From: Geobacter sulfurreducens PCA
GTDB taxonomy: Bacteria > Desulfobacterota > Desulfuromonadia > Geobacterales > Geobacteraceae
Direction of reading: 5' to 3'
DNA: 32,000 nt
Assembly: GCF_000007985.2 (NCBI RefSeq)
Contig: NC_002939.5
Coordinates: forward strand, 3,180,001 to 3,212,000
Shown here: positions 1,447-26,795 of the stretch, one piece after another
Layout: every line of letters begins with the position of its first letter
Position numbering within the stretch: position 1 is the first letter of the stretch
Translations under genes and position numbers: made by a program
Notes under the pieces: model-generated
Seen by the model: only the letters and a program-made list of their open reading frames with translations
Database searches by the model: none
What the model was told of the DNA's origin: nothing

Positions 1447-2487
1447 TCAGTAACTGCCGGCCGCCTCCAGCAGCTTCGCGATTCCGTCCATCCCCCTGGC
1501 CCGGGCCACGTCCAGGGCCGACTTTCCGTCAGCGGTCCGGACAGAGACATCCGCCTTGCGCTCCAGCAACGCCCTGACGATTTCCTCGTTACCCTCGGCA
1601 ACGGCAATCAGCAGGGCGGTGACGCCGTGCCTGTTCCGGACAGCAACGTCCGCCCCGGCATCGATCAGGAACCGTGCGATATCAGTCCGGTTTTGAGCCA
1701 GGGCAAACATGAGCGCGGTATCCCCGTCCCTGTGCACCGCATTGATGTCGGCCTTTGCTCCCACCAGGAATTTCACCACCGCCAGGTGGCCGTTCATGGC
1801 GGCCGCCATCAGCGGCGTGACATCCTCGACATTGCTGTTGTTGAGGTAGGCCCCACGCCCTGCCAGGTACCTGACGATCTCCGGATGTCCGTTGTGGGCC
1901 GCGATCCAGAGCGCATTGACGGCCATACTGTTCAGATAGTTCACCCAGGCACCATTGGCAACCAGCAGCTTCACCGTATCCAGGCTCCCCGCCATGGTCG
2001 CCACCATCAGGGGAGAGACCCCGTCAATGGTGCCGCCCTCGGTTCTGTCGACGCTTTCGGTGTAGTTCACATCCGCCCGGGCCCGGATCAGCTTCCGCAC
2101 CCCGGCCGCGTTTCCCGCCATGGCCGCGTCAAAGAGCTCGCCGTTGACGGAGCGTTTCGACGTGCTGCTGACGATCTCGTCCCCCTTGAAGACGATTTCA
2201 TAGAAACCGTCGCGGGTTAAGCCCCGTTCGCGGCAGTTGCGGTAGTCGCCGCGATAGGTGGTGGTCGCGCCCCGCCTGACGATCGAAACCCTTCTGGTCC
2301 CGCCGTCGCCGCAACGCACGGTCTTGCCGCTGTTTCTGCGTACCGTGTCGTGCCCCCCCAGATCGACGATCATGTCCGTCATGAGCTTCGTGGTCGCTTC
2401 CTGCTCGTATTCATAGGCACGGACATCCGCGGGGAGGCCCAGCGCCACCGCGGCACCGGCGGTCGCCAGCACTAGTCTCGTTATCAT
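1447..2487 (-). CDS. Ankyrin-repeat protein with N-terminal signal peptide (346 aa)
   Basis: Six to seven ANK repeats (e.g. GVTALLIAVAEGNEEIVRALLERKADVSVRT; GDTALMFALAQNRTDIARFLIDAGADV). Start placed at Met62 of the 407-aa ORF (ATG at 2487): GGAGAAGGGA SD, then MITRLVLATAGAAVALGLPADVRA. The longer form would overlap the small ORF and hairpin at 2571-2686. Confidence 0.85.
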   Translation of the reverse strand: MITRLVLATAGAAVALGLPADVRAYEYEQEATTKLMTDMIVDLGGHDTVRRNSGKTVRCGDGGTRRVSIVRRGATTTYRGDYRNCRERGLTRDGFYEIVFKGDEIVSSTSKRSVNGELFDAAMAGNAAGVRKLIRARADVNYTESVDRTEGGTIDGVSPLMVATMAGSLDTVKLLVANGAWVNYLNSMAVNALWIAAHNGHPEIVRYLAGRGAYLNNSNVEDVTPLMAAAMNGHLAVVKFLVGAKADINAVHRDGDTALMFALAQNRTDIARFLIDAGADVAVRNRHGVTALLIAVAEGNEEIVRALLERKADVSVRTADGKSALDVARARGMDGIAKLLEAAGSY

Positions 2488-2570
2488 TCCCTTCTCCTGA
2501 ATCGCGCCGCGTGGGGCCGCAGCCGCAGCGCCCTCTCCCGGCCCGCCGCCCCCATGCTGCTGCAAACAAA

Positions 2571-2602
2571 GAGAGGTGGGGCGCCCTGCAGCCTCACCTC
2601 TC
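2571..2602 (-). terminator. Rho-independent terminator/attenuator-like hairpin after small ORF B
   Basis: Minus strand: GAGAGGTG-aGGC-tgcagggc-GCC-c-CACCTCTC followed by TTTGTTTGC. It begins 21 nt after the TAG of the 20-codon ORF. Confidence 0.6.
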
Positions 2603-2623: not shown

Positions 2624-2686
2624 CTAACAGGGATGCACGTTGGCGGAGCCGACGATCCGCGGTTTGACATAGCTGCGCTTTTTCAT
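2624..2686 (-). CDS. Small ORF B, 20 aa: MKKRSYVKPRIVGSANVHPC (unlisted; paralog of 26591-26653)
   Basis: ATG AAA AAG CGC AGC TAT GTC AAA CCG CGG ATC GTC GGC TCC GCC AAC GTG CAT CCC TGT TAG, translated by hand. GAAAGGA SD-like element 9 nt upstream. 15/20 residues identical to ORF A, with many synonymous codon differences. Followed by a hairpin. Confidence 0.7.
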   Translation of the reverse strand: MKKRSYVKPRIVGSANVHPC

Positions 2687-2738
2687 CTGATCACGTCCTT
2701 TCCGCACCCGCAGGTGCACTATCCGGTGTGTAGCGTTC

Positions 2739-14218: not shown

Positions 14219-14528
14219 CGACCAGCAAGCATAACAAATATTAATTATTACAGACTAATTCAGCGTGAAATCGGTTAACCGTTTGATATTTCTAACCCTA
14301 CCGTTTTAATACAATATGAAATGTCAAAATCACTAACTGTTATTTCACTGCGTCAATAAGCAAAGCAAAAACCGAGCCTTTTATCCCGGAGATCCCTGTG
14401 AAATGGCATATACACTCATGTGGTGAAAAGTCAGTCGCAGACAGTCATTGTTACATTTGAGAAAAAAAAGGAACAACACCGGAGGGATGCGCCTCAGAAC
14501 ACTACAAAAACACTCAAATAATCGGCTG
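14219..14528 (-). promoter_or_regulatory. AT-rich intergenic region: probable promoter/regulatory region of the 979-aa + 2803-aa cytochrome block
   Basis: Hand count gives 112 G+C in 300 nt (14221-14520), about 37 percent, against clearly GC-rich flanks. It lies between the 3' end of the YedE-like gene and the 5' end of the cytochrome gene. Contains the perfect palindrome CGGTTAACCG (14272-14281) and several TGAAAT/ATTTCA words. No promoter hexamers could be assigned with confidence. Confidence 0.5.
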
Positions 14529-15599
14529 TCAGGCGGTACGGGCCCGCCAGAAAAGGCAGGCGGCGAGAACAGCGGCGAATCCCGCCAGAAGGGCGGCCTT
14601 GCCGGCAAGGGAAACGCCGGCTGCCGTGGCGGCAATGCCCCACGACTGGACCAGGGCGCCGCCGATGAGCATCCCCACCACCACGAGCCCCGCATCGGCG
14701 TCCCCCTCGCCCGCCTTGATGAGCTGGCGGAAGGGGCAGCCGCCGATGAGGACGGAAATCCACCCCACGAGCCCCATGCCGAGGAAGCTCCAGAGGTGCT
14801 CCGGATGGGCGCCGGGCTGGCCGTGGAGACCGGGGTTGAATCTGCCGAAGGCTACGTTGGCGGCCACCGCCGCAGCCAGAAAGGCCACCACACCCCAGAG
14901 GGCCGGGGTCCGTCTGCCCATGATGAACGCATCACGGATGCTGCCGGTTATGCAGAAGCGGCTCCGCTGGGCCATGGCGCCGAGCAGCGCGCCGGCGCCC
15001 AGGGCAAGGGGAACGGGAGCGTGCTGTGCCGCGCTCCCCTGGCCGGAAAAGATGATGAAACCGGGGCGAACGAGAAGAAAGACCAGGAGCAGGAGAAAGA
15101 AGGCCGGGATCAGCGGGCCGCCGTGACCAACGCCCGGTGACGGGTGCCCCGGCTCCACCCCGTTGGCGAGCCCCCGGAGACCGGCCCAGACCCCGGCGAC
15201 CAGCCCCACGACGCCGGCAACGGCGGTCAGGTCGCCGGCAGCCAGGCGCAGGAAGAGCTTGATGGGGCAGCCGATGAAGATGGCACAGCCGACAATGAGG
15301 AACACTCCCGCAACGAGGCGCGGCAGGGGGGCGCCCCCGCCGCGGGAGCGGAACTCGCGAAAGAGCAGTGCGCTGGCCGCGGCGCCGAGCACGAAGCCGA
15401 TCAGTTCAGGCCGCAGGTACTGCATGCGGGGGTTGTCGTGCATCCCCAGGGCCCCGGCGCTGTTCTCCATGAAGCAGGAAACGCAGATTCCCGAGTTCTC
15501 CGGATTACCCCAGACCGCCAGAAGCGCACCGAGGCCGCCGAGGAAAAGCCCCGCCGCCACCACCATCCAGAAATGCCGATCCCGCAGCACTACTCGCAC
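14529..15599 (-). CDS. YedE/YeeE-family membrane protein (putative sulfur/selenium compound transporter)
   Basis: Polytopic and Gly/Ala/Leu-rich. Family-typical motifs GNPENSGICVSCF, RSRFCITGSIRD and GGCPFRQL. The ORF-track start at 15599 is GTG. A GTG at 15590 (TAGTG overlap with the upstream stop, GGGAGG 9 nt upstream) and an ATG at 15566 are alternatives. Confidence 0.75.
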   Translation of the reverse strand: MRVVLRDRHFWMVVAAGLFLGGLGALLAVWGNPENSGICVSCFMENSAGALGMHDNPRMQYLRPELIGFVLGAAASALLFREFRSRGGGAPLPRLVAGVFLIVGCAIFIGCPIKLFLRLAAGDLTAVAGVVGLVAGVWAGLRGLANGVEPGHPSPGVGHGGPLIPAFFLLLLVFLLVRPGFIIFSGQGSAAQHAPVPLALGAGALLGAMAQRSRFCITGSIRDAFIMGRRTPALWGVVAFLAAAVAANVAFGRFNPGLHGQPGAHPEHLWSFLGMGLVGWISVLIGGCPFRQLIKAGEGDADAGLVVVGMLIGGALVQSWGIAATAAGVSLAGKAALLAGFAAVLAACLFWRARTA

Positions 15600-16129
15600 C
15601 CTCCCGCCAGCCGACTCTTCAGGTAGTTGACCTTGCGCAGGGACGCCGCCAGGCTCCGGTTGCCAGGGTTGGCGGCTGCCCGGCCGCCGATGCCCGCCAG
15701 CCCCTCGACCACCAGGCCCTCGATGGCGCGGCGCCGTGACAGGGGGCTCTGTGCGTCCACGTAATCGCCATTGAGCCTGACCCCTTCCTCAAAGGAAGCC
15801 ACGGCCTCGTCCAGTGCCCCCATCTTCCGGAGGATCTCCCCCCTGAGGATGTAGCCGTGGGCCTCGCCGGGGTAGCTTCGGATCAGCTCGTTCAGCCTCA
15901 GGAGGGCTTCCTGGTCGTTGCCGGCCGTGCGCAACTCCTCCACCGGCCCATAGAGCCTGGCGATCAGCTCGACGCGGGCGCGATAGGCCATCTCACGCTC
16001 CACGGCCTTGCCGAGGCCCGCGGCCCTGCCTGCTCCTGCCCCGTGATTCGTTGCAAGAACACCGGCCAGAGCCGCAATGACGACGGCCAGGAGCAGCCAG
16101 GTTATTTTGTCGAAGGTGTCGGTGAACAT
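15590..16129 (-). CDS. Membrane-anchored TPR-repeat protein (179 aa from ATG at 16129)
   Basis: Met36 of the 214-aa ORF gives MFTDTFDKITWLLLAVVIAALAGVLA as a TM anchor. TPR-like helices follow (DQEALLRLNELIRSYPGEAHGYILRGEILRKMGALDEAVASFEEGVRLNGDY). The start lies 22 nt after the upstream stop. Confidence 0.6.
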   Translation of the reverse strand: MFTDTFDKITWLLLAVVIAALAGVLATNHGAGAGRAAGLGKAVEREMAYRARVELIARLYGPVEELRTAGNDQEALLRLNELIRSYPGEAHGYILRGEILRKMGALDEAVASFEEGVRLNGDYVDAQSPLSRRRAIEGLVVEGLAGIGGRAAANPGNRSLAASLRKVNYLKSRLAGGCE

Positions 16130-16151
16130 TGGAAAAACCAGCCTTTTCAGG

Positions 16152-17057
16152 TCAGTACGTCTGATATGGCGGCATATTGACACGCTTCGCCATTTCACGG
16201 ATAAGGTCGTAATCGCTGTCCAGCAGATCTTCATAGCCGTCGATCCAGGCGGCCTTCAGCACCTTGAGCCGCTCCCCGTCCACCTCGGCGGTGTCGCCGG
16301 GCTTCAGGGCCAGGAGGGCGTCCTTCACCTTCTTCACCAGGGCCGGATCGGTTCCCTTGGCCACGGCAAAGGTGCAGTAGGGGATCGGCTTGCTCTGGGC
16401 GAGGATGACGAAGTCGTCCGCCGAGATCTTTCCTTCCTGTGCCATGGTTTCCAGGTCGAGGACCGGCGCGGCGGCCACGTCATACTTGCCGTGCAGGACG
16501 CCGTAGATGAGTTTTTCGTGCTTGAAGGAGCCCGAGGGGATGGAATAGGTCCCCAGGTCGTGCTCCGGGTTGATGCCGGCCGAGAGCATCAGGTCGTACT
16601 CGGCCAGGTAGCCGGTGGGAGCCAGCATGGGGCCGAAGGCCAGCCTCTTCCCCCGGATGTGGTCGAGTGTTTCGATGCCGCTCCCCTTGCGGGCGATGAG
16701 GGCGCCCGCGGAACGGGAGCCGAAGGTGCCGCGCTTTTCCGATGCCACCAGCTCGACGCCGTGGTTCTCCCGCAGGATGACGTAGATCAGGGAGTTGGTG
16801 TGGGTAAAGGTGAACTCGCCGGACTTGAACCGTTTCTCGAAATCGTGGGTATCCACCGGCACCGCCACGAAGTCGACCCCGCACCTGTCGGACAGATAGC
16901 GGGTGAGTGGGAGGAAGCGGGACATGGTCTCCTGCTCGTTGTTGCAGAGCATGTAGCCGATCTTCACCACGGGCCGGGCCCCCTCGGGCTTGCAGCCGGC
17001 AAGGAAGGCGGCAAAGAGGGCCAGCATGAAACATCGCGTCAGGGTCGAAAAATTCAT
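16152..17057 (-). CDS. PhnD-like (phosphonate-binding fold) periplasmic substrate-binding lipoprotein, 301 aa
   Basis: Start at Met66 of the 366-aa ORF (ATG at 17057), giving MNFSTLTRCFMLALFAAFLAGC with a LAGC lipobox. The body resembles the PhnD/phosphonate-bd family (VKIGYM...FTHTNSLIYV...GKRLAFG...TGYL...GKYDVAA). Confidence 0.75.
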   Translation of the reverse strand: MNFSTLTRCFMLALFAAFLAGCKPEGARPVVKIGYMLCNNEQETMSRFLPLTRYLSDRCGVDFVAVPVDTHDFEKRFKSGEFTFTHTNSLIYVILRENHGVELVASEKRGTFGSRSAGALIARKGSGIETLDHIRGKRLAFGPMLAPTGYLAEYDLMLSAGINPEHDLGTYSIPSGSFKHEKLIYGVLHGKYDVAAAPVLDLETMAQEGKISADDFVILAQSKPIPYCTFAVAKGTDPALVKKVKDALLALKPGDTAEVDGERLKVLKAAWIDGYEDLLDSDYDLIREMAKRVNMPPYQTY

Positions 17058-17094
17058 TACATGGAGTCCTGTCGTTGTCCGGGCGGTTAACCCG

Positions 17095-17964
17095 CTACCA
17101 GCACGAGGGGTCTTCACCCTCAAGGGATTGATGCATGACGTATGCCCTGCCGCGGCATCCCCCCCGGCATTCCGCCAGCTCGCCGCAGGCACCGCAGGCG
17201 CGGGGATGCTCCAGGAGCCGGCGCCGGAGGGCCTTTTTCGCTTCCGAGGCAATGAGCTCCTGCAGGGGCATCTCGCCCGCGGTGCCGAGCCTCACCGGCA
17301 GGGTGGGACAGGGATAGACACCGCCGTCGGGGGCGATGGCGATCATGGTGTTGGCCGCCTGGCATCCCCCCTGGGGAAAGGGTACGCCGGGGTTGAAGGC
17401 CCGCCAGAGGAACGGATCGTGAATGGTCAGGGCAAGGCGCTGGGCGCCGCCTTCGGCGTCCAGGGCGTTCGCCAGCTCCCGCTGTTCGTTCATGGTGAGG
17501 AAGAACGGGGGCTCGCCTCCGTACAGGCGTTGCATGGGGAGGACGAGCCGGGTGATCCCCCGGTCGAGACAGTAATGCACAAGGGTCGGGAGTTCGCGCC
17601 AGTTCCCGTGGGTCACCGCATAGGATACGCCGGCGGACGGCTCGTCCTGCCACTCCCCGGAGTCGAGCAGATCGGCATGGTCCACGTCAAGGAGCAGCTC
17701 CCGCACCGCCCCGTGGGCAACAAGGGCCCGGACGGTATCGTCATGGGCCTGCGGGGGGATCGTGAGGGTAACGGCGGCCGGGCCGCCCCGGAACCGCTCC
17801 AGCACTTCGCCGAGCCAGCCGGGAGAGGTTGGCGCGGTGCTCGTTACATTCAGCATGAGGGGCCGGCAGTCGATGATCCCGGCGGCGATCGCCAGCAGGA
17901 GCGACGGATCGGCCGCGGTAGCGGGGAGATCCCAGTAGATGGTTATGGGAGACGAAAGTTCCAT
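17095..17964 (-). CDS. SPASM-domain protein lacking the radical SAM CxxxCxxC motif (GeoRSP-like SPASM protein)
   Basis: The C-terminus has the full SPASM signature: CQAANTMIAIAPDGGVYPC (C-x12-G-x4-C), CGACGELAECRGGC (CxxCx5Cx3C) and a final DPSCW. The N-terminus ITIYWDLPATAAD aligns with LTINWAINNTCNFACRHC of the neighbouring radical SAM enzyme but has no Cys triad. Confidence 0.8.
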   Translation of the reverse strand: MELSSPITIYWDLPATAADPSLLLAIAAGIIDCRPLMLNVTSTAPTSPGWLGEVLERFRGGPAAVTLTIPPQAHDDTVRALVAHGAVRELLLDVDHADLLDSGEWQDEPSAGVSYAVTHGNWRELPTLVHYCLDRGITRLVLPMQRLYGGEPPFFLTMNEQRELANALDAEGGAQRLALTIHDPFLWRAFNPGVPFPQGGCQAANTMIAIAPDGGVYPCPTLPVRLGTAGEMPLQELIASEAKKALRRRLLEHPRACGACGELAECRGGCRGRAYVMHQSLEGEDPSCW

Positions 17965-17968
17965 AGAA

Positions 17969-19090
17969 TCATGCCCAGCAGTGGGGGTCGGGACTGTTAA
18001 GGTCGCCGGTGAGGGCCAGGGCCCGGGCGGAGCAGCCGCCGAGGCAGTCCTCGTACGCGCTGCAGCCGGCGCACTTGCCGGTGGGCTTCTTGGTACGCAG
18101 CGCCGCCAGTACTGCCGAGTCCCGCCAGACCTGCTTCAGGTCGTCCCGCACGATGTTGCCGATGACAACGGGAATGAAGCCGCAGGGGGTCATGTCGCCG
18201 TTGGTCTTGATGTTCAGGGAGAGCTTGCCGCAGACGCTACCCTTCACGAGGCTCCCCGCATCGCGGGCTCCCAGGAGGGCGATGATCGGGTCGTCCAGGG
18301 AGACGTCGAGCCCCGACTCCCGCTCCCTGGCGGCCAGGGCGCCCCGGTAGAACTCCCGCCACTCGGCGGGCGAAAGGTCCAGTTCATCCCTGTGGGACAG
18401 ACCCAGCCCCGAGCACTTGAAATTGTGGAAGTTGAGCTGTCCCACCCCCTGCTCCCGGGCAAAGGTCACCAGATCGTCGATGGCCGTGTGATTGATCCGG
18501 CAGATCACCGTGGAGATAGAGGTGGCGATGCCCGCCCCGGCCAGATGCCGCAGGGCAGCCACGGCCCGGCCGTGGCTGCCGTCAACGCCGCGGAACCGGT
18601 CGTGGACCCGGGGGAGGTGGCTGTCGATGCTGATACCCACCCTGGTGAACCCGGCGTCCCGCAGGGCCGCCGCCGTGTCCCGGTCAATGAGCCAGCCGTT
18701 GCTGTTCAGGGAAATCCGCAATCCCGACCCGCTGGCGTGCCGGGCGATCTCCAGCAGCCCCGGGTGCAGGAGGGGTTCCCCGCCGCCGAAATTGACGGAA
18801 AAGACCCCGGCAGCGGCCGCCTTTCCCAGGCATGCCAGAAGGACGTCCCGGGGGAGTTCCTCGTGGGTGTCCCCCCGGCTGTAGCAGTGGCGGCAGGCGA
18901 AGTTGCAGGTGTTGTTGATGGCCCAGTTGATGGTGAGGGGCGCTTCCAGTGACGGCGCGTCCGCTCGGCTGGCAGCGGTGGCCTCATCGCCGGCTCCCCG
19001 GCGTATCGCCGGATGCGCCTGCGTTGCCTCCCCTGTGCCGCCGCGCTCGCCACGCGAACTCACCGTCGCGGTTTCCCTGTCATTCTGCAT
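17969..19090 (-). CDS. Radical SAM/SPASM-domain peptide-modifying enzyme (GeoRSP-like), 373 aa
   Basis: CNFACRHC radical SAM cluster motif, GGGEPLL SAM-binding motif and a SPASM signature (CGKLSLNIKTNGDMTPC; CAGCSAYEDCLGGC; DPHCWA). Start set at the ATG at 19090 (Met86 of the 458-aa ORF), overlapping the PqqD stop by 11 nt. The first ~55 aa are low complexity, so the true start may be further in. Confidence 0.9.
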   Translation of the reverse strand: MQNDRETATVSSRGERGGTGEATQAHPAIRRGAGDEATAASRADAPSLEAPLTINWAINNTCNFACRHCYSRGDTHEELPRDVLLACLGKAAAAGVFSVNFGGGEPLLHPGLLEIARHASGSGLRISLNSNGWLIDRDTAAALRDAGFTRVGISIDSHLPRVHDRFRGVDGSHGRAVAALRHLAGAGIATSISTVICRINHTAIDDLVTFAREQGVGQLNFHNFKCSGLGLSHRDELDLSPAEWREFYRGALAARERESGLDVSLDDPIIALLGARDAGSLVKGSVCGKLSLNIKTNGDMTPCGFIPVVIGNIVRDDLKQVWRDSAVLAALRTKKPTGKCAGCSAYEDCLGGCSARALALTGDLNSPDPHCWA

Positions 19091-19394
19091 AGCGGATAAA
19101 TCCCTTGACGGCCAGTTCGTCCAGGAATGCCTGGACATCTTCCCGCAGCACCGCCTCGTCCACCTCGAACTGGGGGAGCAGCTCCGCCACGATGCCCTCC
19201 GGGGTCCGGCCGTCACAGAGCTTCCAGATTTCAGTGCCGAGATAGTTGAGGGAGAGCATGGTCCCACCGGAGAACAGGACCGAGGTGCCGGTCTCCTCCA
19301 CCGCCTCGCCCCGGTCCAGGGCCTCCAGGACCCGGGCCAGGGCATCGGCCTCCTCGCGCCACATGACGTCGGGGTTGCGATGAATCGTCTTCAC
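19080..19394 (-). CDS. PqqD-family peptide chaperone (RiPP recognition element)
   Basis: Typical PqqD-family pattern: HRNPDVMWREE...LNYLGTEIWKLCDGRTPEGIVAELLPQFEVDEAVLREDVQAFLDELAVKGFI. I prefer the GTG at 19394 (AAGGAAGG SD 8 nt upstream). The ORF-track start, a GTG at 19418, is the alternative. Confidence 0.8.
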   Translation of the reverse strand: MKTIHRNPDVMWREEADALARVLEALDRGEAVEETGTSVLFSGGTMLSLNYLGTEIWKLCDGRTPEGIVAELLPQFEVDEAVLREDVQAFLDELAVKGFIRYAE

Positions 19395-19438
19395 GTTTCT
19401 TACCTTCCTTGCTCTCACAATCCGTTGTTGTGAATGCC

Positions 19439-19759
19439 CTAATCCCCCTGCGCCGTTATGGAGGCAATGACCAGATTCTCCTGGGAAGCGTTGCGGATGC
19501 CGTGGTCCTCGAACGCGGGAACGATCACGATCTGCCCCGTGGTGATGGACTGGGTCTTGCCGCCGGACTGGAACTGGCCGGTACCCTCCATGACCATCCA
19601 GATATGGCTGCCGTGGTGGGTGTGGGTCACGATCTCCTGGCCGGGCTTCATGCAGATGAGGCTCACCCGGGCGTGATCATCGGACCAGATGGTTTCCTGG
19701 TGACGTTTTTCATCGTTGAACGTTTTGAGGGTCTGGACGTCGAGCACCTGTGATTTCAT
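19439..19759 (-). CDS. Cupin-domain protein, 106 aa
   Basis: Cupin motif 1-like GQEIVTHTHHGSHIWMVMEG and motif 2-like GQIVIVPAFEDHGIRN. AGGAGG SD 5 nt before the ATG. Confidence 0.75.
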   Translation of the reverse strand: MKSQVLDVQTLKTFNDEKRHQETIWSDDHARVSLICMKPGQEIVTHTHHGSHIWMVMEGTGQFQSGGKTQSITTGQIVIVPAFEDHGIRNASQENLVIASITAQGD

Positions 19760-19818
19760 GCATTCCTCCTGAATGTGGTTGTGTCATCCCGGCTCATGGG
19801 GTACCCAAGGTACCCGCT

Positions 19819-21654
19819 TCAGGCCTTCCTGACAAGCTTCAGAACAGAGCCGAGCCACGCGGAGGCCCGGTTGAAGACGGATGAGGCGGTGGAAACCCGC
19901 ACCTCCCCGCCCGTGTCGGCGACACCGGAGAAGGTCACCCCGTAACGGGAAGCGAAGAGGTTGGCCCCGCGGAAATCCGCTGCGCCGGCTGACGGCAGCG
20001 GCACGACCAGGGCGGCGCCTCCCCGGGCGTTATGGTCCGCCAGGAGTTTCGCCTCGGCATCGCTGAGCCCGGCGGCGCCGTCATCGCCGCAGAAGAGCCA
20101 GACCTGGCCCCACTCCGCCAGCAGCCCTCCGGTGAGGCGCGGCACCTCGCGCCGGTCCACCGTCTTCACGGTGAAGCCCCGCGCCGCGAGTTCGGCCAAG
20201 ACCTTCTCCCCCAGCAGCACCGCGGCACCGCCGGCACCGTCCCCGAGGCGGCAGACGAGGATTCTGGTGGAGGCGGCCGAGAGGGAATTCTCTTCGAGCC
20301 AGTCGGCGATGTTGCCGATGTAGGCCCCGGTGTCGTAGCGGTCGGCCATGGCTGCGGTGAACCGTCCGTACGTCCCGTCGAACACGACCCCCCCCCGCCC
20401 GTCCACGGCATTGGTGTAGGTGGCGACGGTCCCCTTGCCGGCGGGGTCCATCACCATCCGCACGTTGGGATCGTGCTTCAGGACCACGGCGGATGTGCCG
20501 CCGGACAACGACGCGACCCCCCGCAGGAGAGGATTGCCCACATCCACGCCCGGCACGAACACCAGGAGCCGGAAGGCGTAAGCAATCAGGAGCGTCCCCG
20601 AAAGGCAGGCGAACATGTAGAGGAAGAAGACCCGCTTCTTGAAAAAGGTCCAGAAGAGCACCATGGTGGGCACCGCGGTCACCGGTCCGCCGATCATGAA
20701 CGCAAGGGCCGCCCCGGCGTCCATGGTCCCGCCCAGGGCTCCCTTGATATGGTAGACGATGCTGGACGCGCTGATCTGGTGCAGGAACATTGGTACCGAC
20801 GCCAGGGTCACCCAGACGATGTTCAGGGGATCCGTCCGGCCGAAGAAGCGGTAAATCCACTCCTTGGGCAGGTAGCGCTCCACCACCGCGCCGATGACCA
20901 CCCCCACGATGACGTACTTCCCCACCACCCAGACCATCTCCGCGGACTTGGCCAGGAAGATGAGGAACTTGTTGCCGGTCCTGACGGCGACCCGGTTGCC
21001 GAATTTCCGCCGGCAGTTGCACCGCAGCCGCTCGTCCGGGTAGTCCTCGTCGTGGAAATCGCCCCGCACGATCCCCCCTTCGACGAAGATCTCGTTCTTC
21101 CGGAAACCGGGCCGCTTGCTGAGGGCAAGGGTCACCAGCCCGGCGAAGATCCCCATGGAGAAGGCGGAGATGGTCCTGACCACGGTCCACTCGGGACCCA
21201 GGTCGTTCAGGGTAAGGAGATAGGTTGACGGGCTCAACAGCGGCGAGGTCACCATCAGGGCCATGACCGGCGCCAGGGGAATCCCCGCCACCAGGAGGCT
21301 GATGGCGGTGGTCACCGTGCCGCAGGCGCACAGGGGGGTGATGATCCCCACGAAGGACGCGAGAAAGACGCTCAGGGCCCCGTACTTTCTGAGGGATGCC
21401 TGGAGTTTCACGGCAACCTTGAAGGTCCGGAGGTAGCCGGCAATGAGAATGCCCACGATGAAATAGGGCAGCACGTCACGGAGCTCGGCCATTACCCCGT
21501 GGTCGCTGAAAAACAGGTCCCAGAGCTCGCTGCCGAGCAGCACGGGGAACGAAACCGGCGCGGCATCGGAGGAGACCAGGTGCCCGCCGGTGCCCGTGCC
21601 CCACACGTGCCAGACCACTAGGGACAACGAGATCAGAACCATGACGATCAGCAT
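19819..21654 (-). CDS. Predicted permease (DUF318/ArsP-type, PLCACG motif) fused to a ~230-aa C-terminal soluble domain of unknown function
   Basis: Multiple TM segments with ITPLCACGTVTTAISL, typical of the 'predicted permease' family. The C-terminal third (from about DPAGKGTVATYTN) is non-hydrophobic and matches nothing I recognise. Start at the ATG at 21654 (Met27); the GTG at 21732 is the alternative. Confidence 0.7.
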   Translation of the reverse strand: MLIVMVLISLSLVVWHVWGTGTGGHLVSSDAAPVSFPVLLGSELWDLFFSDHGVMAELRDVLPYFIVGILIAGYLRTFKVAVKLQASLRKYGALSVFLASFVGIITPLCACGTVTTAISLLVAGIPLAPVMALMVTSPLLSPSTYLLTLNDLGPEWTVVRTISAFSMGIFAGLVTLALSKRPGFRKNEIFVEGGIVRGDFHDEDYPDERLRCNCRRKFGNRVAVRTGNKFLIFLAKSAEMVWVVGKYVIVGVVIGAVVERYLPKEWIYRFFGRTDPLNIVWVTLASVPMFLHQISASSIVYHIKGALGGTMDAGAALAFMIGGPVTAVPTMVLFWTFFKKRVFFLYMFACLSGTLLIAYAFRLLVFVPGVDVGNPLLRGVASLSGGTSAVVLKHDPNVRMVMDPAGKGTVATYTNAVDGRGGVVFDGTYGRFTAAMADRYDTGAYIGNIADWLEENSLSAASTRILVCRLGDGAGGAAVLLGEKVLAELAARGFTVKTVDRREVPRLTGGLLAEWGQVWLFCGDDGAAGLSDAEAKLLADHNARGGAALVVPLPSAGAADFRGANLFASRYGVTFSGVADTGGEVRVSTASSVFNRASAWLGSVLKLVRKA

Positions 21655-21772
21655 CCGGTTCCCCGACTCAGCCTGGTGTCCGTGGACCTCGCAGGCCTCC
21701 CTCGGTTTTGCCCTGAACGGATTCACGAGCACGATACCCTGCCCGTGCCGGCTGTTCCGATGCCGGAGATAT

Positions 21773-22681
21773 TCATTGTTTCCTCCTCAACCGCCTGGCG
21801 CACGCCAGTACCGCACCGAGCCCCACCATGGCGAACCCGGCGAAAACACACGGCCTCCCCGGGTCCCTGACCACCTGAATACCAGCAAAAGACATGCCCA
21901 TCGCATCCGTACCGACCTGGGTGTTGTAGAAATAGAGGCCGTTCCAGATGAAGGGGGCGTTCACCTCGGCCGTACCCTCCGCTATGGCAACGCCATCGCG
22001 GCTCAAGGCCAGGTCGACCCAGAGCCGCTTCAGGACCGGATTTTGAAACGCCACCAGCCTGAAGTCGTAGGGGAACTCGGCGGGGAGGCTGCGTTCTCCC
22101 GAGGTATCGCAGGTGCCGACGAGCTGCCCGTTGCGAAAAACCGAGAGCCTGAGGACCTCCGAGGGAAACTGGAGGGAATCCGCCGTCACGCGATAGGGCC
22201 CCGCCGTGAAGCTGTCACCGGTCTTCAGAGTGTGGAGCGCCTCCTTCGCGCTGCCCCTGAGGACCCCCACCCTGACCGGAATCGGGTAAAACTCCCGATT
22301 GATCCGCGTGACCGTCAGGTCGGCACCGAGGGGAGCGTCCCGCTCCAGGTCCCACCGGTAGGCCTGGTCAACAGAGGTTCCCTCGTAGACGTTGACGGTC
22401 GCCACGTGGCCGAACGTCCGGGCCGCAACGCCCCCGCAGATTACCAGCACGCCCAGATGCAGAATCAGCACCGGCACCGAAAGGGACCGGAACCGGCGCA
22501 GCGTGCAGCAGACGAGATTCAGCGCCACTCCCGCCAGCAGGCAGAGAAACGCCGGATGGGCGTAGAGAGCCCTGGTCCCGGCGAACGTGCCGGGGATCGC
22601 CGCCACGGCAACGATCAGGAACAGGGCCACCGCCAGTTCCATGGAAGCCAGGAACCGGCCTATCCGTTTCAGTAGAGTCAC
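21773..22681 (-). CDS. ResB/Ccs1-like cytochrome c biogenesis (System II) protein, short form, 302 aa
   Basis: The N-terminus RIGRFLASMELAVALFLIVAVAAIPGT matches the conserved ResB start (..S.KLA..L......SI.GT). Two N-terminal TMs, a periplasmic beta-rich middle and a C-terminal TM. No CcsA/ResC (WWD) partner is present in the window. Confidence 0.7.
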   Translation of the reverse strand: MTLLKRIGRFLASMELAVALFLIVAVAAIPGTFAGTRALYAHPAFLCLLAGVALNLVCCTLRRFRSLSVPVLILHLGVLVICGGVAARTFGHVATVNVYEGTSVDQAYRWDLERDAPLGADLTVTRINREFYPIPVRVGVLRGSAKEALHTLKTGDSFTAGPYRVTADSLQFPSEVLRLSVFRNGQLVGTCDTSGERSLPAEFPYDFRLVAFQNPVLKRLWVDLALSRDGVAIAEGTAEVNAPFIWNGLYFYNTQVGTDAMGMSFAGIQVVRDPGRPCVFAGFAMVGLGAVLACARRLRRKQ

Positions 22682-22700
22682 CGGGAATGGTCCGCTCTGG

Positions 22701-23258
22701 TCAGATCAGTTTTTTCGACTTCAGGAAGTCTCTGACCGCTTTTCTGGACTTGTCGCCGGCGTCCGCCGACTTCAGCAGCCGGGCGTAGGCGTCGTTGGTG
22801 AGCACCCCGGAGAGCTTGGCCAGCAGCTTGGGCAGGGCCGGGTAGTTGTTCAGAGTTTCCACCGTCAGGACGGGAGCATACGAGGGCGTGCCGCCGAAGG
22901 GCTCAAGCCAGGCAAGGTTCAGGGTTGAACGATAGCCGCTCTTGATCGCCTCCCGTGCCGCCCCGTCACCCGCCTTCGGTTTACCCAGCACCTCCAGCGC
23001 GCGCTCGGGGGTTTCCACGAGCAGGTTGACGTCGCCCTTTTTCACGGCACCGTAGAGCTCCCGGCTGTCCCGGTAGACCTGGACCTTCACCGCGGTGCCG
23101 GTCCGCTCGGTGATGAGCAGGGACATCATTTCCGCCAGCAATCTCTCCTGGGGCGTGTTGGGAACGCCGATGTGGAGGGTCCTGCCGACACAGGCCCCTG
23201 CCAGGTGCGCACCCACGAGAACCGAAACCGCAACAATGCAGCAAATAAGCTTTTTCAT
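22701..23258 (-). CDS. Small secreted/lipoprotein-like substrate-binding-domain protein (OpuAC/glycine-betaine-binding-like), 185 aa
   Basis: Signal peptide MKKLICCIVAVSVLVGAHLAGAC. LHIGVPNTPQERLLAEMMSLLITERTG...LYGAVKKGDVNLLVE resembles the N-terminal lobe of OpuAC-type binding proteins. Assignment is tentative. Confidence 0.4.
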   Translation of the reverse strand: MKKLICCIVAVSVLVGAHLAGACVGRTLHIGVPNTPQERLLAEMMSLLITERTGTAVKVQVYRDSRELYGAVKKGDVNLLVETPERALEVLGKPKAGDGAAREAIKSGYRSTLNLAWLEPFGGTPSYAPVLTVETLNNYPALPKLLAKLSGVLTNDAYARLLKSADAGDKSRKAVRDFLKSKKLI

Positions 23259-23330
23259 TGGTCACCTGTCTACCATGGTGGTGCAGACCGCTGTCTGCGT
23301 TGATTCGGAGCGTGCCCGTGACGAGCGCTC

Positions 23331-24020
23331 TCAGTCTGGCCCCAGCCCCACGTCCAGGGCACTATCCGCTGTGCCCGGGGAAGGTACGAATTCCGCCGAG
23401 GCGCGCCATGTGGACGGCGGAAACCGCCTGGAGCTCCCCACGTACTGCTTGTGGCCCGCGGGGACGATGAGGGTGTATCGGCCGTCCGCCCCCGTCCAGG
23501 CCGAGATGTAGTCGGGCATGCGGCTGTTGTCGCTGGTGGCCGACGCAAACACAAAGGCATTGGCCACCGGGTTCCCGTCGCCGTCCAGAACCCGTCCCGC
23601 CAGCTTCACGAAATCTGCGACCAAGGGCCGGCGCATGCGCCCCAGGTCCCGGATATCGGCTACCGTAAAGTCCTGCTCGATCTCGGCATCCGCGGTCAGG
23701 TCCATGACGGCCGGTTCCCCCGAGTGCTTGTCGCCCGGCATGAGCGGACCGTATGATTCGTCCAGCTTGAGCCGCGCCACCACCCAGTAGGTTCCCGGCG
23801 GCACCCTGACGGCCGTGGTGCCGTCCCCGGCCGACGGCGGTGAGATGAAGGTTGCGGGCCGCCGGACATGGGCCGAGTCATAGACAAAGAGCTTCACCCC
23901 TGCCATGGGCTTGCCGTCCACGTCCGTCACCCGGCCCCTGAGGACCGCCGCATCCGCAGCGCCGGCCAGGAAGCCGGTGAGCGCCAGCCAGAGTGTCGCC
24001 CGGAGCGCCGCTCCCCTCAT
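23331..24020 (-). CDS. Secreted protein with two carboxypeptidase-regulatory-like (CarboxypepD_reg) beta-sandwich domains, 229 aa
   Basis: Signal peptide, then two copies of the (L)xGRVxDxDGxPxAxxxVF... pattern (LRGRVTDVDGKPMAGVKLFVY; LAGRVLDGDGNPVANAFVFA). The start overlaps the upstream stop as ATGA (24017-24020). Confidence 0.55.
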   Translation of the reverse strand: MRGAALRATLWLALTGFLAGAADAAVLRGRVTDVDGKPMAGVKLFVYDSAHVRRPATFISPPSAGDGTTAVRVPPGTYWVVARLKLDESYGPLMPGDKHSGEPAVMDLTADAEIEQDFTVADIRDLGRMRRPLVADFVKLAGRVLDGDGNPVANAFVFASATSDNSRMPDYISAWTGADGRYTLIVPAGHKQYVGSSRRFPPSTWRASAEFVPSPGTADSALDVGLGPD

Positions 24021-26518
24021 GGCGTCCCTCCGTTTGCCGGCCCAACCGGGCCCGGCTTGTCCAGCCAGGGCTCGTAGAGGACCATGCCGATGCCCGGCTC
24101 CTGGCGGCCGTCAAAGATCGTCCCGCCCGGATCCCCCTCGCCCCACCAGTTGCCCCGGGCGTTCACGTCCTGGTCGTTGAAATCGCCGATCCGCATGTTG
24201 TAGCCGCTGTTGCCCACGAGACTGTTGCCCGTCACCGTCAGCCCGCCCCCCTTCTCCCGCACGAAGATCCCCGTTTCATTCGCCGTGATCAGGTTCTCCG
24301 CGATGAGGGCGTTGCCGATGTACGAGCGGATGCCGATGGTGTTGTCCCGAAAGATCGAGCGGCGGATCCGGACCGGGCCGCTTCTGAAGCGCATGCCGCC
24401 GTAATTGTGCCGAATCAGGCAATCGGTGACGGCGAGATCCGTGAAATGACTGTGAATGCCCCAGGTGGCGTACTCGACGATGCAGTTGGAGATGACGCTT
24501 CCCGTGGCGTATTCCAGCAGGATTTCGTTCCAGTCGGAGGGCCCTTTGCGGTCGACTGAGGTGAACCGGATCGTGCCGTCCCGTTGTCCCGATGCAAGGA
24601 GCTTGCCCTTGATCTCAAGGCCGGTGCCGGCGGCGAACTGCACCGTTGTTCCCGGGGCAACGGTCAGGGCCGCGCCGGGGAGTACCGTCGTGGGGACGGC
24701 CACGGTGATGACGCCGCGCCAGACCGTATCGGCGGCCACGGTCGCCAGCGGCCAGACAAAGGGGGTGGGAGCGGCCCCCGGCCGGCCGTAATCGACACGC
24801 CCCAGCCGCGGATCGTCCCGCTGGTCGTTGATCACCAGGGCCGGGTCCCGTCCCCCCCACCAGTTGCCGGGGGCGGAAACATCGCCGCTACCGTCCAGAT
24901 CGATGGCATAGAGACCGTTCCCGGCGAAATTGTTGCCGCTGATGATCCCGGCAAAGGACAGGATTCCCATCCCCCGTTCGCCGTTGTCGGCAATCAGGTT
25001 CCCCGTGATCAGGGAGCCGGAATCCTGGATGTTGAAGCCGCTCAGGCCGTTGGCCGTCACCGCGTTGCCTGCGAACTCGACAGAGTCGACGTTTTTCAGG
25101 GAGATGCCCGTTTCGGCGTTGCCGGAGATGCTGTTGCGGTTGACCTCGCCGTGGTAGAGATCGGCCGCCATGAGGCCGAACCGGTTGCCGTCGAACAGGT
25201 TCTCCCTGACCGTTACCGCTCCTTCGCGCAGGCGGAGCCCTTCCCTGCCGTTGGCCACGATCCTGTTCCCGCGGACCGTGAGGGTGGTGCGGAAGAAATT
25301 CCCTCCCACCTGGTTGCCGCAGAGCAGGTTGTCCACCAGTTCAACCTCAGAATCGCGCCCCTGAACCCCGCTCTTATTGCCGCAAAGGGTGTTGCCGTGC
25401 AAGGCCACCACCGACTCCTGGAACTGGATGCCGCGGTAATTGTTCGTGAGGGTGGTGTTGTGGATCGCCACCGTGGAGAAGTGGAAGTGAAGTCCCCGGT
25501 AGGCGTGCTCAATCCGGCAGTGTTCCACCAGGTTCTGGCCTGCCGAGCTGTTCATGATGTTGACGGCATCCCAGTCGCCCATGCGCCGGTCCTTTTCGGC
25601 GGAACGGAAGGTGATGGGCCGGTCGGGAGTCCCCTTGGCCAAAAGGCGCCCCTGGATCATGATCCCGTTTTCGCCGATGCCGTCGCCGTTGGTGTCCCGC
25701 CGGGTAAACTCGACGATCGTTCCCGGCAGGATGACCAGGCGGCTCCCCTCCGGCACCCTCACCGTGCCGTCCACCAGGATTCTCCCCTGCCACAGGGTCT
25801 CGCCCAGCAGGACCATGTCCTGGTACCGGCGGCTGACCGGCGCCTCCTCGTTGACCGGCGGCCCCTTCGGCAGGGTGTGGGGCCGGACCGCTGCCGTGTG
25901 GGCGTCTTTCTTCCGGTTGCGGGCCACCTCGGTGGCATGGGCGGTCACCCGGGCACCCTGAAGGGATAGGACGCCGTAATCGTTCTCGATGATCCTCGCC
26001 CCCTCCACCGTGATCCGCGACGCTGCCCCCTGCGCCACCAGGCCGTACCGGTTTTCCCGAAGCGTCGACGAGGAGAGATGCAGCGTCCCCTCCGCCACGG
26101 AGATCCCGCTGTCGGCGTCGGCGACCAGGCATTCCCTGATGGCGGCGGTGCCGCCGTCGATGAGGATTCCCGCCCAGCTTCCCGCCCTCTTCTCCTGGCC
26201 GGAAAACCGGACCGGAGCCGTCACGGTGCCCTCAACCGCCAGCCTCCCCCGGATGGTTATCTCCGTGAGGGGCGAGAGATATTCGGGGTCGGTCTTGGTG
26301 CTTTCCGCGGCCGCGACCGTGACGACGGTGCCGGCCCGGACGGTCAGGGTGACCCCCTCGGGCACGACGACGTCTTCCGTGACCGTGACGTTCCCCTGCC
26401 AGACCGTATCGGACGTTATCACCCCGGCGATCGCGCCGGCGGGGAGGCCGAACAGCAGGGCGGACAGCAGCGTCAGGGAAAGGGCGGCGATTCTGGCGAG
26501 CGACATGGGTTCGAGCAT
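24017..26518 (-). CDS. Secreted right-handed parallel beta-helix repeat protein (NosD/CASH-like), 833 aa, three internal modules
   Basis: Signal peptide (LTLLSALLFGLPAGAIAG). Many PbH1-type repeats (N.I..N...GI.......I..N). The cap motif DTVW.G.(I/V)TV....V.PG..LTV.(P/A)GT.V.(F/V) occurs three times. Confidence 0.8.
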   Translation of the reverse strand: MLEPMSLARIAALSLTLLSALLFGLPAGAIAGVITSDTVWQGNVTVTEDVVVPEGVTLTVRAGTVVTVAAAESTKTDPEYLSPLTEITIRGRLAVEGTVTAPVRFSGQEKRAGSWAGILIDGGTAAIRECLVADADSGISVAEGTLHLSSSTLRENRYGLVAQGAASRITVEGARIIENDYGVLSLQGARVTAHATEVARNRKKDAHTAAVRPHTLPKGPPVNEEAPVSRRYQDMVLLGETLWQGRILVDGTVRVPEGSRLVILPGTIVEFTRRDTNGDGIGENGIMIQGRLLAKGTPDRPITFRSAEKDRRMGDWDAVNIMNSSAGQNLVEHCRIEHAYRGLHFHFSTVAIHNTTLTNNYRGIQFQESVVALHGNTLCGNKSGVQGRDSEVELVDNLLCGNQVGGNFFRTTLTVRGNRIVANGREGLRLREGAVTVRENLFDGNRFGLMAADLYHGEVNRNSISGNAETGISLKNVDSVEFAGNAVTANGLSGFNIQDSGSLITGNLIADNGERGMGILSFAGIISGNNFAGNGLYAIDLDGSGDVSAPGNWWGGRDPALVINDQRDDPRLGRVDYGRPGAAPTPFVWPLATVAADTVWRGVITVAVPTTVLPGAALTVAPGTTVQFAAGTGLEIKGKLLASGQRDGTIRFTSVDRKGPSDWNEILLEYATGSVISNCIVEYATWGIHSHFTDLAVTDCLIRHNYGGMRFRSGPVRIRRSIFRDNTIGIRSYIGNALIAENLITANETGIFVREKGGGLTVTGNSLVGNSGYNMRIGDFNDQDVNARGNWWGEGDPGGTIFDGRQEPGIGMVLYEPWLDKPGPVGPANGGTP

Positions 26519-26533
26519 AGTCTCACAAAAAGC

Positions 26534-26571
26534 AAAAGAGGTGCCGACGAATACGGTTCGGCACCTCTTTT
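26534..26571 (-). terminator. Strong rho-independent terminator/attenuator hairpin after small ORF A
   Basis: Perfect 14-bp stem AAAAGAGGTGCCGA / TCGGCACCTCTTTT (26534-26547 pairs with 26558-26571) and a 10-nt loop. On the minus strand it is followed by GCTTTTTGTG. It starts 19 nt after the TGA of ORF A and ends 15 nt before the ATG of the beta-helix gene. Confidence 0.75.
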
Positions 26572-26590: not shown

Positions 26591-26653
26591 TCAGCAGGGA
26601 TGAACCACTGCGCTCCCGACAACCCTCGGACGAATATAGCTTTTTTTCTTCAC
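26591..26653 (-). CDS. Small ORF A, 20 aa: MKKKSYIRPRVVGSAVVHPC (GTG start; hidden as the tail of the 91-aa track ORF)
   Basis: AAGGAGGA (26661-26668) lies 7 nt upstream of GTG AAG AAA AAA AGC TAT ATT CGT CCG AGG GTT GTC GGG AGC GCA GTG GTT CAT CCC TGC TGA. A paralog with the same length and the same start and stop positions lies at 2624-2686. Followed by a perfect hairpin. Confidence 0.7.
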   Translation of the reverse strand: MKKKSYIRPRVVGSAVVHPC

Positions 26654-26795
26654 CTGATTTTCCTCCTTTGTTTCCGTGCGTACCGCACTCTGTGCATCTG
26701 CCGGGAACGACCTTCCGGCCGATGCCCTTATCGTTCCGGTGCCGGGCTCGCAGCCGCCGATGATTTCGCCGGCTGCCCTGCTCCGGTCTCGCCTG

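Follow-up and report, generated by a model that had tools for sequence, protein, structure and literature searches.

Terminator-like hairpins in a Geobacter sulfurreducens locus as the closing part of a conserved 20-codon peptide cassette

In the stretch of the Geobacter sulfurreducens PCA genome analysed here (32,000 nucleotides, contig NC_002939.5, positions 3,180,001 to 3,212,000; hereafter the window, with all positions counted from its first letter), two stable hairpins, A and B, each lie behind a gene of only 20 codons, and it seems likely, with a probability of roughly 0.7, that each of them serves as the Rho-independent terminator in a cassette of three parts by which transcription units are closed. 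As judged from sequence, this cassette would start with a strong Shine-Dalgarno sequence (GAAAGGAGG), followed by a gene of 19–21 codons and then by a GC-rich hairpin and its U tract. The units closed by it would for the most part code for giant extracytoplasmic multihaem cytochromes or secreted proteins related to them. The mini-gene would in most copies be co-transcribed with the large gene upstream and translated, probably strongly, from its own ribosome-binding site, while transcription would end at the hairpin, which probably also acts as a protective 3′ end against 3′ exonucleases. Co-directional genes further downstream, where they lack their own promoter, would be covered only by transcripts that pass the terminator; in the window, such genes would be a cluster that begins with a NosD-like gene and includes the GeoRSP genes (after A) and an ankyrin-repeat gene (after B). 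Since there is no room for a promoter after hairpin A, the GeoRSP cluster would probably be expressed at a low level via read-through, at a small fraction of what the cytochrome/peptide unit reaches.

The relevant genes at both hairpin loci are all on the minus strand. An earlier, sequence-only reading of the window had described A as a perfect hairpin ending 15 nt before the ATG of a gene for an 833-aa beta-helix protein (the NosD-like gene), had placed B at 2571–2602, 83 nt from the start of the ankyrin gene, and had pointed to the core GAGGTG...CACCTC shared by the two stems, all of which was confirmed. In hairpin A, AAAAGAGGTGCCGA (26534–26547) pairs with TCGGCACCTCTTTT (26558–26571) at every position, and on the transcribed strand the stem leads via the 15 nt of GCUUUUUGUGAGACU to the ATG at 26518; hairpin B, with a stem of 9 bp plus three inner pairs, is followed by UUUGUUUG on the way to the ATG at 2487. 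Directly 3′ of the stems there are U tracts (UUUUGCUUUUUG in A and UCUCUUUGUUUG in B), the distance from stop codon to stem is 19 nt in A and 21 nt in B, and the gaps between stop and next start that house them (72 nt for A, 136 nt for B) are both intergenic. Folded as RNA, hairpin A reaches −26.8 kcal/mol (z = −5.75), a stability equalled by none of 200 shuffled sequences. In a window with 65% G+C, many coding stretches are as stably folded as the hairpins, so that free energy alone is not distinctive, and neither hairpin is picked up by a simple terminator scan, whose loop limit excludes them. The whole window is without a match at the gathering score in Rfam 15, and around hairpin A only chance-level matches (E 2.7–4.1) were returned. 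What does set the hairpins apart is that A has a perfect stem, that both have U tracts and are intergenic and, most of all, that they are conserved. Both hairpins have all the sequence features of Rho-independent terminators, in agreement with their earlier description as terminator-like; we infer from these features that transcription terminates there, and in that sense they are new examples of a very well-known kind.

Conservation was assessed in a collection holding one genome per species, which was scanned with a degenerate DNA pattern for the C-terminal half of the peptide (P-x-[ILVMF]-V-G-[ST]-A-x-V-H-P-C-stop). At least 120 stretches of DNA carry this pattern (L001–L120), and the peptide counts and distribution given here cover the matches listed from that scan; because the pattern is strict, fixing several residues, and because only the listed matches are covered, the diversity and distribution of the family are underestimated. 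In the window itself the pattern has two matches only (genes A and B), with none expected by chance. A hairpin was called at a ΔG of −10 or lower combined with a T tract (at least four T in seven), within about 100 nt of the stop codon. By this measure, a hairpin with a T tract follows 98 of the 119 peptide genes in other genomes, whereas of the other gene ends in these loci it follows 61 of 414, and at a ΔG of −15 or lower the comparison becomes 91/119 versus 24/414. Any local hairpin with a ΔG of −14 or lower is present behind 109 of the 119 (a figure for the peptide genes alone, with no control). The hairpins of the family have a median ΔG of −21.7 kcal/mol, and their stems mostly start 10–24 nt after the stop. 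As regards the next gene, a hairpin with a T tract is present in 73 of 88 copies where that gene is co-directional and in 20 of 24 where it is convergent; a device for regulating the genes downstream would not be expected to persist before convergent genes.

It is not only the presence of a hairpin that is conserved, but also the pairing. The stems of 43 copies, including hairpin B, carry (A/G)AGGTGAGGC...GCCTCACCT(C/T) (the GGTGAGG class), and hairpin B was aligned with 41 others of its class, all from other genomes. In this alignment of 42 sequences 84.7% of the cells are paired, versus 39–53% when the partners are slid, and two-sided changes occur at 12 of 16 pairs, with a covariation score that was reached by none of 500 shuffles; since the subset was picked by its core pairs, only the flanking and inner pairs count as covariation evidence. 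The class of hairpin A (GAGAGGTGCCGA / GAGAGGCAYCG) shows clean double swaps among seven loci, the NosD-type subset has exchanges of CG with UA and of AU with GC, and homologues of hairpin A with compensatory changes are found in L121, L040, L178, L060, L050 and L007.

The class of the hairpin also goes along with the kind of gene upstream and the subtype of the peptide. Behind cytochromes that end in ...WNxKxPW the peptide has GSA[ND] in 23 of 39 cases and the hairpin is of the GGTGAGG class in 25 of 39, while behind CarboxypepD_reg proteins of about 270 aa, which end in FPGRGP, the peptide has xKY in 7 of 13 cases and the hairpin GAGGCR in 6 of 12, with GGTGAGG in none. The simplest reading of these sequences is that whole cassettes would have been inherited together, with their stems kept by strong selection for pairing. 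A generic, genome-wide palindrome of the repetitive extragenic (REP-like) type was considered and rejected, as the inverted repeat of the GGTGAGG class is hardly found outside the peptide cassette.

A number of observations weigh against Rho-independent termination as the full explanation. About 18% of the family lacks a good T tract, most of these copies still having a hairpin, and in such copies the hairpin may act besides or instead of intrinsic termination. Hairpin B, taken singly, is weaker, with only a modest gain over shuffled sequences (z = −2.49; 4 of 200 shuffles equally stable). Furthermore, the stem positions flanking the anchor hold 0.9–1.3 bits, versus 0.2–0.6 bits at four-fold synonymous sites of the same loci (which are nearly saturated), and such high conservation of the stem sequence could mean that it has a sequence-specific role. 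Finally, a strong terminator 15 nt before a cluster of 11 genes that has no visible promoter is awkward; either more transcripts pass terminator A than its strength suggests, or it is overlapped by a kind of promoter that the scan does not cover.

It is the peptide cassette, rather than the hairpins, that seems to be the undescribed part. Every listed match proved to be the end of an open reading frame (ORF) of 19–21 codons (ORFs in the fetched loci having been called mechanically), with the family consensus MKKxxYxxP[KR][VI]VG[ST]AxVHPC. There are at least 94 distinct peptide sequences, across which 10 positions are invariant or nearly so and no codon runs occur; the Tyr is invariant, even though it lies outside the search pattern. 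The Shine-Dalgarno consensus given above is present at −16 to −8 in 111 of 112 copies, and comparison across the family gave no conserved promoter at a fixed distance upstream of the mini-gene. By hand count, genes A and B differ synonymously at eight sense codons (one of them a switch between Ser codon families) and by five conservative replacements, a pattern that argues for selection on the protein. Among the matches listed, the hosts are Geobacteraceae, Desulfuromonadaceae/Desulfuromonadales and Nitrospirota/Thermodesulfovibrionia, with a few contigs binned to other taxa, and several genomes have three to five copies.

No model in Pfam or NCBIfam matched the peptide, even at E ≤ 10. A literature search found no paper with the peptide sequences, or with GeoRSP in the relevant sense, and the Geobacter genome papers that were checked make no mention of such a peptide or hairpin. 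Peptides A and B are exact 20-aa entries in NCBI/UniRef/nr, so that for this genome at least the ORFs have been annotated already; of the peptides of other genomes, eight have no entry. At the end of the gene (the last three sense codons, 26594–26602 in A and 2627–2635 in B) codon usage is constrained, His being encoded by CAT in 111 of 122 copies (44% background) and Pro by CCC or CCT (CCY) in 109 of 122 (44% background). In minimum-energy folds, the most frequent pairing partner of this last-codon stretch is the Shine-Dalgarno region of the same gene. Avoidance of pairing with the GGTG arm of the terminator was considered as the cause of the CAT bias and rejected, the bias being the same without GGTG (38/41 versus 73/81).

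Table 1 Features of the two hairpin loci and of the GeoRSP pair in the window
Feature	Position	Strand	Details
Hairpin A	26534..26571	-	14–15 bp perfect stem, AAAAGAGGUGCCGA(A)...(G)UCGGCACCUCUUUU
U-rich tail and spacer	26519..26533	-	GCUUUUUGUGAGACU; between hairpin A and the NosD-like ATG
Peptide gene A	26591..26653	-	GTG start at 26653, MKKKSYIRPRVVGSAVVHPC, stop TGA
Shine-Dalgarno of peptide gene A	26662..26669	-	AAAGGAGG; read from sequence
Multihaem cytochrome, 1046 aa	26796..29936	-	upstream of cassette A; 26 haem motifs; 139 nt before the peptide start
NosD-like beta-helix protein, 833 aa	24017..26518	-	downstream of cassette A; first of the 11 GeoRSP-cluster genes
GeoRSP radical SAM/SPASM gene	17969..19090 (start approximate)	-	TIGR04303, 668 bits
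GeoRSP SPASM-domain partner gene	17095..17964	-	TIGR04304, 512 bits
Hairpin B	2571..2602	-	GAGAGGUGAGGC...(G)CCCCACCUCUC, GGTGAGG class
U-rich tail of hairpin B	2557..2570	-	UUUGUUUGCAGCAG; read from sequence
Peptide gene B	2624..2686	-	ATG start at 2686, MKKRSYVKPRIVGSANVHPC, stop TAG
Shine-Dalgarno of peptide gene B	2695..2702	-	GGAAAGGA; read from sequence
Multihaem cytochrome, 2803 aa	2739..11150	-	upstream of cassette B; 32 haem motifs; ends ...WNTKSPW; 49 nt before the peptide start
Ankyrin-repeat protein	1447..2487	-	downstream of cassette B; signal-peptide-like N-terminus

Throughout the family the gene immediately upstream of the peptide gene is on the same strand, with a spacing of usually 30–100 nt. 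The commonest upstream genes encode giant multihaem cytochromes (with up to 39 haem motifs), non-haem giants and secreted CarboxypepD_reg proteins, whereas a rhodanese and a B12 radical SAM enzyme are single-case upstream genes. The giant cytochromes carry the signature GPWFFG...CH..TAGG.TY....WN.K.PW at their very end (2739–2870 in the window, and also in L004, L006, L009, L012 and others), a C-terminal motif that is common to 39 upstream proteins; the non-haem giants have a fibronectin-like repeat at the end plus ...TG(A/D)..C(R/Q/N).

Some of the rarer surroundings of the cassette deserve separate mention. A rhodanese-like gene (best match ExtH, of a selenite/tellurite reduction operon) stands before the peptide in L044 (6796–7998, minus strand) and L002 (5264–5689, minus strand), and the peptide is followed by TPR-YedE in L044 and L028 and by a phosphonate-type binding-protein gene in L002; these neighbours link the cassette to sulfur/selenium-handling genes. 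In L003, L017 and L032, which are from Nitrospirota, the genes after the cassette resemble a NikR-type regulator and a CbiMNQO-type nickel/cobalt transporter, as far as N-terminal sequences go. In L039 (1–840), L041 (1723–3237, minus strand) and L052 (1586–2776, minus strand) the peptide comes after the gene for a B12 radical SAM enzyme that is BchE-like and highly conserved. This enzyme was considered as a partner of the peptide and rejected, since its close relatives are without the peptide in seven places (five distinct loci). In four of these five distinct loci a plain terminator stands where the cassette would be (L203, L206/L207, L208 and L209), and neither is present in L204/L205. Given that these peptide-free loci mostly have a plain terminator, the cassette looks like an add-on at the ends of operons.

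With regard to the genes downstream, cassette B and the ankyrin gene keep their order in L078, L001, L077, L033 and L053. Cassette A is followed by a cluster of 11 genes (14529–26518, minus strand), namely those for the NosD-like protein, a CarboxypepD_reg protein, an OpuAC-like protein, a ResB-like protein, an ArsP-type permease, a cupin, the GeoRSP radical SAM/SPASM protein, the GeoRSP SPASM protein, a phosphonate-type binding protein, a TPR protein and YedE. A literature search found no paper describing the function of this cluster. In assembled public sequencing runs, the NosD-like protein of this organism turns up in 95 blocks (SRR34004744 and SRR17798820, for example). The GeoRSP pair lies in the same gene string, 7 kb downstream of hairpin A. 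The longest ORF for the radical SAM protein (17969–19345, minus strand, 458 aa) is 85–125 aa too long, as 647 homologues have 330–345 aa with radical SAM and SPASM domains only and a 98%-identical one has 373 aa; the true size is about 335 aa. An RRE domain fused to the radical SAM enzyme was therefore rejected as well, the apparent N-terminal extension of 130 aa being an artefact of the longest ORF. At the far end of the cluster, between the YedE gene and a gene for a 1007-aa cytochrome, there is a weak terminator-like site (14372–14389, minus strand), CCGGGATAAAAGGCTCGG followed by TTTTTGCTTT, at which the transcript of the GeoRSP cluster may end.

For comparison, metagenome loci were fetched via the radical SAM protein (L121–L185), of which 28 long ones were analysed. 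Most of the 11-gene set is kept in at least 20 of these 28, with a rearranged order in several. The peptide stands directly before the NosD-like gene in the window, in L121, L122 and L178, and in about ten genome loci, and the order peptide, hairpin, NosD-like gene occurs in at least 12 loci besides the window, from two phyla. No peptide is present upstream of the NosD-like gene in L127, L128, L130, L135, L136, L145, L149, L150 and L164. Peptide-free copies have a sigma-70-like promoter before the NosD-like gene in L127 (at about 540–580), L128 (about 2555–2595), L130 (about 2683–2720) and L136/L174 (about 2458–2500 in L136); that of L127, TTTACT-N18-TATAGT, ends 8 nt before the ATG, which suggests that its NosD-like message may be leaderless. 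Nitrospirota copies with the cassette have −10-like boxes between hairpin and ATG. In the window, L121 and L040, where only 10–15 nt separate the hairpin from the ATG, no promoter-like match was found. The sequence-only reading had held that no promoter fits before the beta-helix gene, which agrees, for promoters of the sigma-70 type, with the 15-nt gap and with a scan that found no promoter-like site there on that strand; its further claim, that the gene must depend on read-through or on a promoter upstream of the hairpin, is a fair inference for the window, while other lineages do have a promoter at this place.

The same reading had likened the arrangement to that of precursor peptides and their maturases, where a leaky terminator sets a high ratio of peptide to enzyme. 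Applied to the genes identified here, the 20-aa peptide would be the precursor of a modified peptide or peptide-derived cofactor, matured by the GeoRSP pair, with a deliberately leaky hairpin A keeping the peptide message in large excess over that of the enzyme. This seems unlikely, and for locus A, the only one to which it could apply, it is a weak possibility. What speaks for it is that peptide A and its hairpin stand directly before a co-directional cluster with strong matches to both GeoRSP models (Table 1), a placement shared by L121, L122 and L178, while in L185 the radical SAM gene is followed by the peptide gene at a distance of 146 nt. Moreover, the best matches of the enzyme after the GeoRSP model include maturases of mycofactocin and pyrroloquinoline quinone (PQQ), the size of the peptide and its multi-copy habit are like those of PqqA, and a hairpin between precursor and downstream genes, with the precursor message in excess, is typical of pqqA and of many lantibiotic precursor genes. 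The presence of a peptide within 10 kb in 8 of the 28 long clusters also looks more frequent than expected from a few copies spread over a genome of a few Mb, for which about 5% is our own rough estimate. However, the other 20 of the 28 have no peptide within 10 kb, at least nine GeoRSP loci are clearly without one upstream of the NosD-like gene, and among the 8-kb peptide loci only three (L088, L091 and L098) match either GeoRSP protein at E ≤ 1e-8, most copies of the peptide trailing cytochrome genes far from any maturase. A sequence search (Pfam, NCBIfam) gave no RRE/PqqD match in the N-terminal stretch or in the whole enzyme, and no separate gene of this kind was found. Other best matches of the enzyme are the haem b synthase AhbD and NirJ2, which modify haem and are not known to be peptide maturases. 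In addition, the hairpin is equally frequent where no co-directional gene lies behind it, and peptide-free copies of the cluster have their own promoter before the NosD-like gene. Of the earlier likeness to precursor/maturase operons, then, the GeoRSP pair downstream of A is what stands. A fuller version, in which the peptide would be the precursor of a cofactor or modified peptide (with the invariant Tyr and the C-terminal His-Pro-Cys as its reactive residues), made by the GeoRSP pair, and would serve the extracellular machinery of multihaem cytochromes in Geobacter-like bacteria and Nitrospirota, with the hairpins setting a high peptide-to-enzyme ratio and stabilising the message, is quite unlikely.

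Whether the stem has, beyond termination, a function tied to its sequence is a question raised by the composition of its arms. With a 5′ arm that mimics a Shine-Dalgarno sequence, a 3′ arm that mimics its complement and the CAUCCYUGC end of the ORF, the element would be bound by a protein or the ribosome, or would give rise to a 3′-derived small regulatory RNA. The inverted repeat GGTG[AG]G[AG]...[CT]C[CT]CACC is found directly behind peptide genes 34 times, with just two independent sites elsewhere in 909 kb, and the conservation of the stem beyond that of four-fold synonymous sites would fit such a role, as would the constraint to CAT and CCY codons. Yet hairpin class goes along with upstream gene and peptide subtype, so that shared ancestry of the cassettes plus strong selection for pairing can account for the conservation, and the other two-thirds of the copies, including cassette A, are without the full GGTGRGR...YCYCACC, many having quite different stems. 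The arm resembling a Shine-Dalgarno sequence is, moreover, locked inside a very stable stem, and there is no match to an Rfam family, so that a function of this kind is very unlikely. The Shine-Dalgarno-like and anti-Shine-Dalgarno-like arms noted in the sequence-only reading are thus real as sequence and common in the family, but no function could be shown for them.

Attenuation by a leader peptide, in which translation of the mini-ORF would choose between terminator and antiterminator and thereby control the genes downstream, had also been put forward, and this is not supported. The order of short ORF, hairpin and co-directional genes, which occurs twice in the window, is indeed that of an attenuator, and in L036 and L102 a divergent gene lies upstream, so that the mini-gene there seems to open a unit that runs on into the NosD-like gene. 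In contrast, the consensus fold of seven NosD-type loci holds the terminator and two small hairpins within the ORF, with no conserved antiterminator pairing; the best alternative that could be aligned by hand, CAUCCCU with AGAGGUG, offers 6/7 pairs against the 15-bp stem. A ribosome that terminates at the stop codon shields about 12 nt beyond it, which leaves the stem out of its reach at the distances found in the window and in most of the family. The peptide is conserved as a protein across phyla and has no regulatory codon runs, the downstream genes are of many kinds and, among the 112 copies for which a downstream ORF was called, 24 have a convergent one, before which the hairpin is kept equally, and the mini-gene normally trails a long gene at 30–100 nt, all of which makes attenuation highly improbable. 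A selenocysteine insertion sequence (SECIS) with a recoded stop codon, as might be imagined from UGA being the commonest stop, from a gene for a putative selenium transporter of the YedE family in the window and from the distance between UGA and hairpin, which is roughly that of bacterial SECIS elements, is next to impossible and is refuted by the use of stop codons (TGA 78, TAA 33 and TAG 8 in 119 copies, with TAG in copy B), apart from which no copy in any fetched locus has TGA in place of the Cys codon and T tracts follow the stems.

Taking Rho-independent termination as the most likely role, the hairpins mark the boundaries of giant-cytochrome operons, and they would imply that in this organism the cluster of GeoRSP, NosD-like and YedE genes is expressed only via terminator read-through. 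They have also led to a tightly conserved, multi-copy family of 20-codon genes that goes with the genes for extracellular electron transfer in metal-reducing bacteria. A heavily studied system would gain a new component if the product of this family turned out to be the precursor of a cofactor, a partner that binds metal or sulfur/selenium, or a regulator.

Compared with known systems, the cassette hairpins are most like ordinary Rho-independent terminators, with which they share the GC-rich stem-loop, the directly following U tract, the short distance past the stop codon and the intergenic position, and hairpin A additionally has an upstream A tract, which gives it the symmetric form of bidirectional terminators. 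Unlike the usual terminators, they are inherited with one particular 20-codon gene across two phyla, their stem sequence is conserved far more strongly within classes, and hairpin A abuts the next start codon (at 15 nt) with no visible promoter. The pqqA-pqqBCDE and lanA operons resemble locus A, and locus A only, in their short, strongly translated ORF, stable hairpin and co-directional radical SAM/SPASM gene, and the peptide gene occurs in several copies per genome, as in pqqA systems; the differences are that most cassettes trail cytochrome genes instead of lying beside a candidate maturase, that most GeoRSP clusters have no adjacent peptide, that a sequence search found no peptide-recognition domain, and that the peptide is only 20 aa long with no visible split into leader and core. 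With the trp, his and ilv attenuators the cassettes of the window have the short ORF, terminator hairpin and co-directional downstream genes in common, but the ORF of the cassette is at the end of the upstream operon and not at the start of an operon, antiterminator and regulatory codons are lacking, and the stop is too distant from the stem. Bacterial SECIS elements, finally, are matched by a hairpin about 10–25 nt after a frequent UGA in a locus with a putative selenium-transporter gene, whereas the cassette differs from them in its variable stop codon, in the U tracts after the stem and in having no selenocysteine variants.

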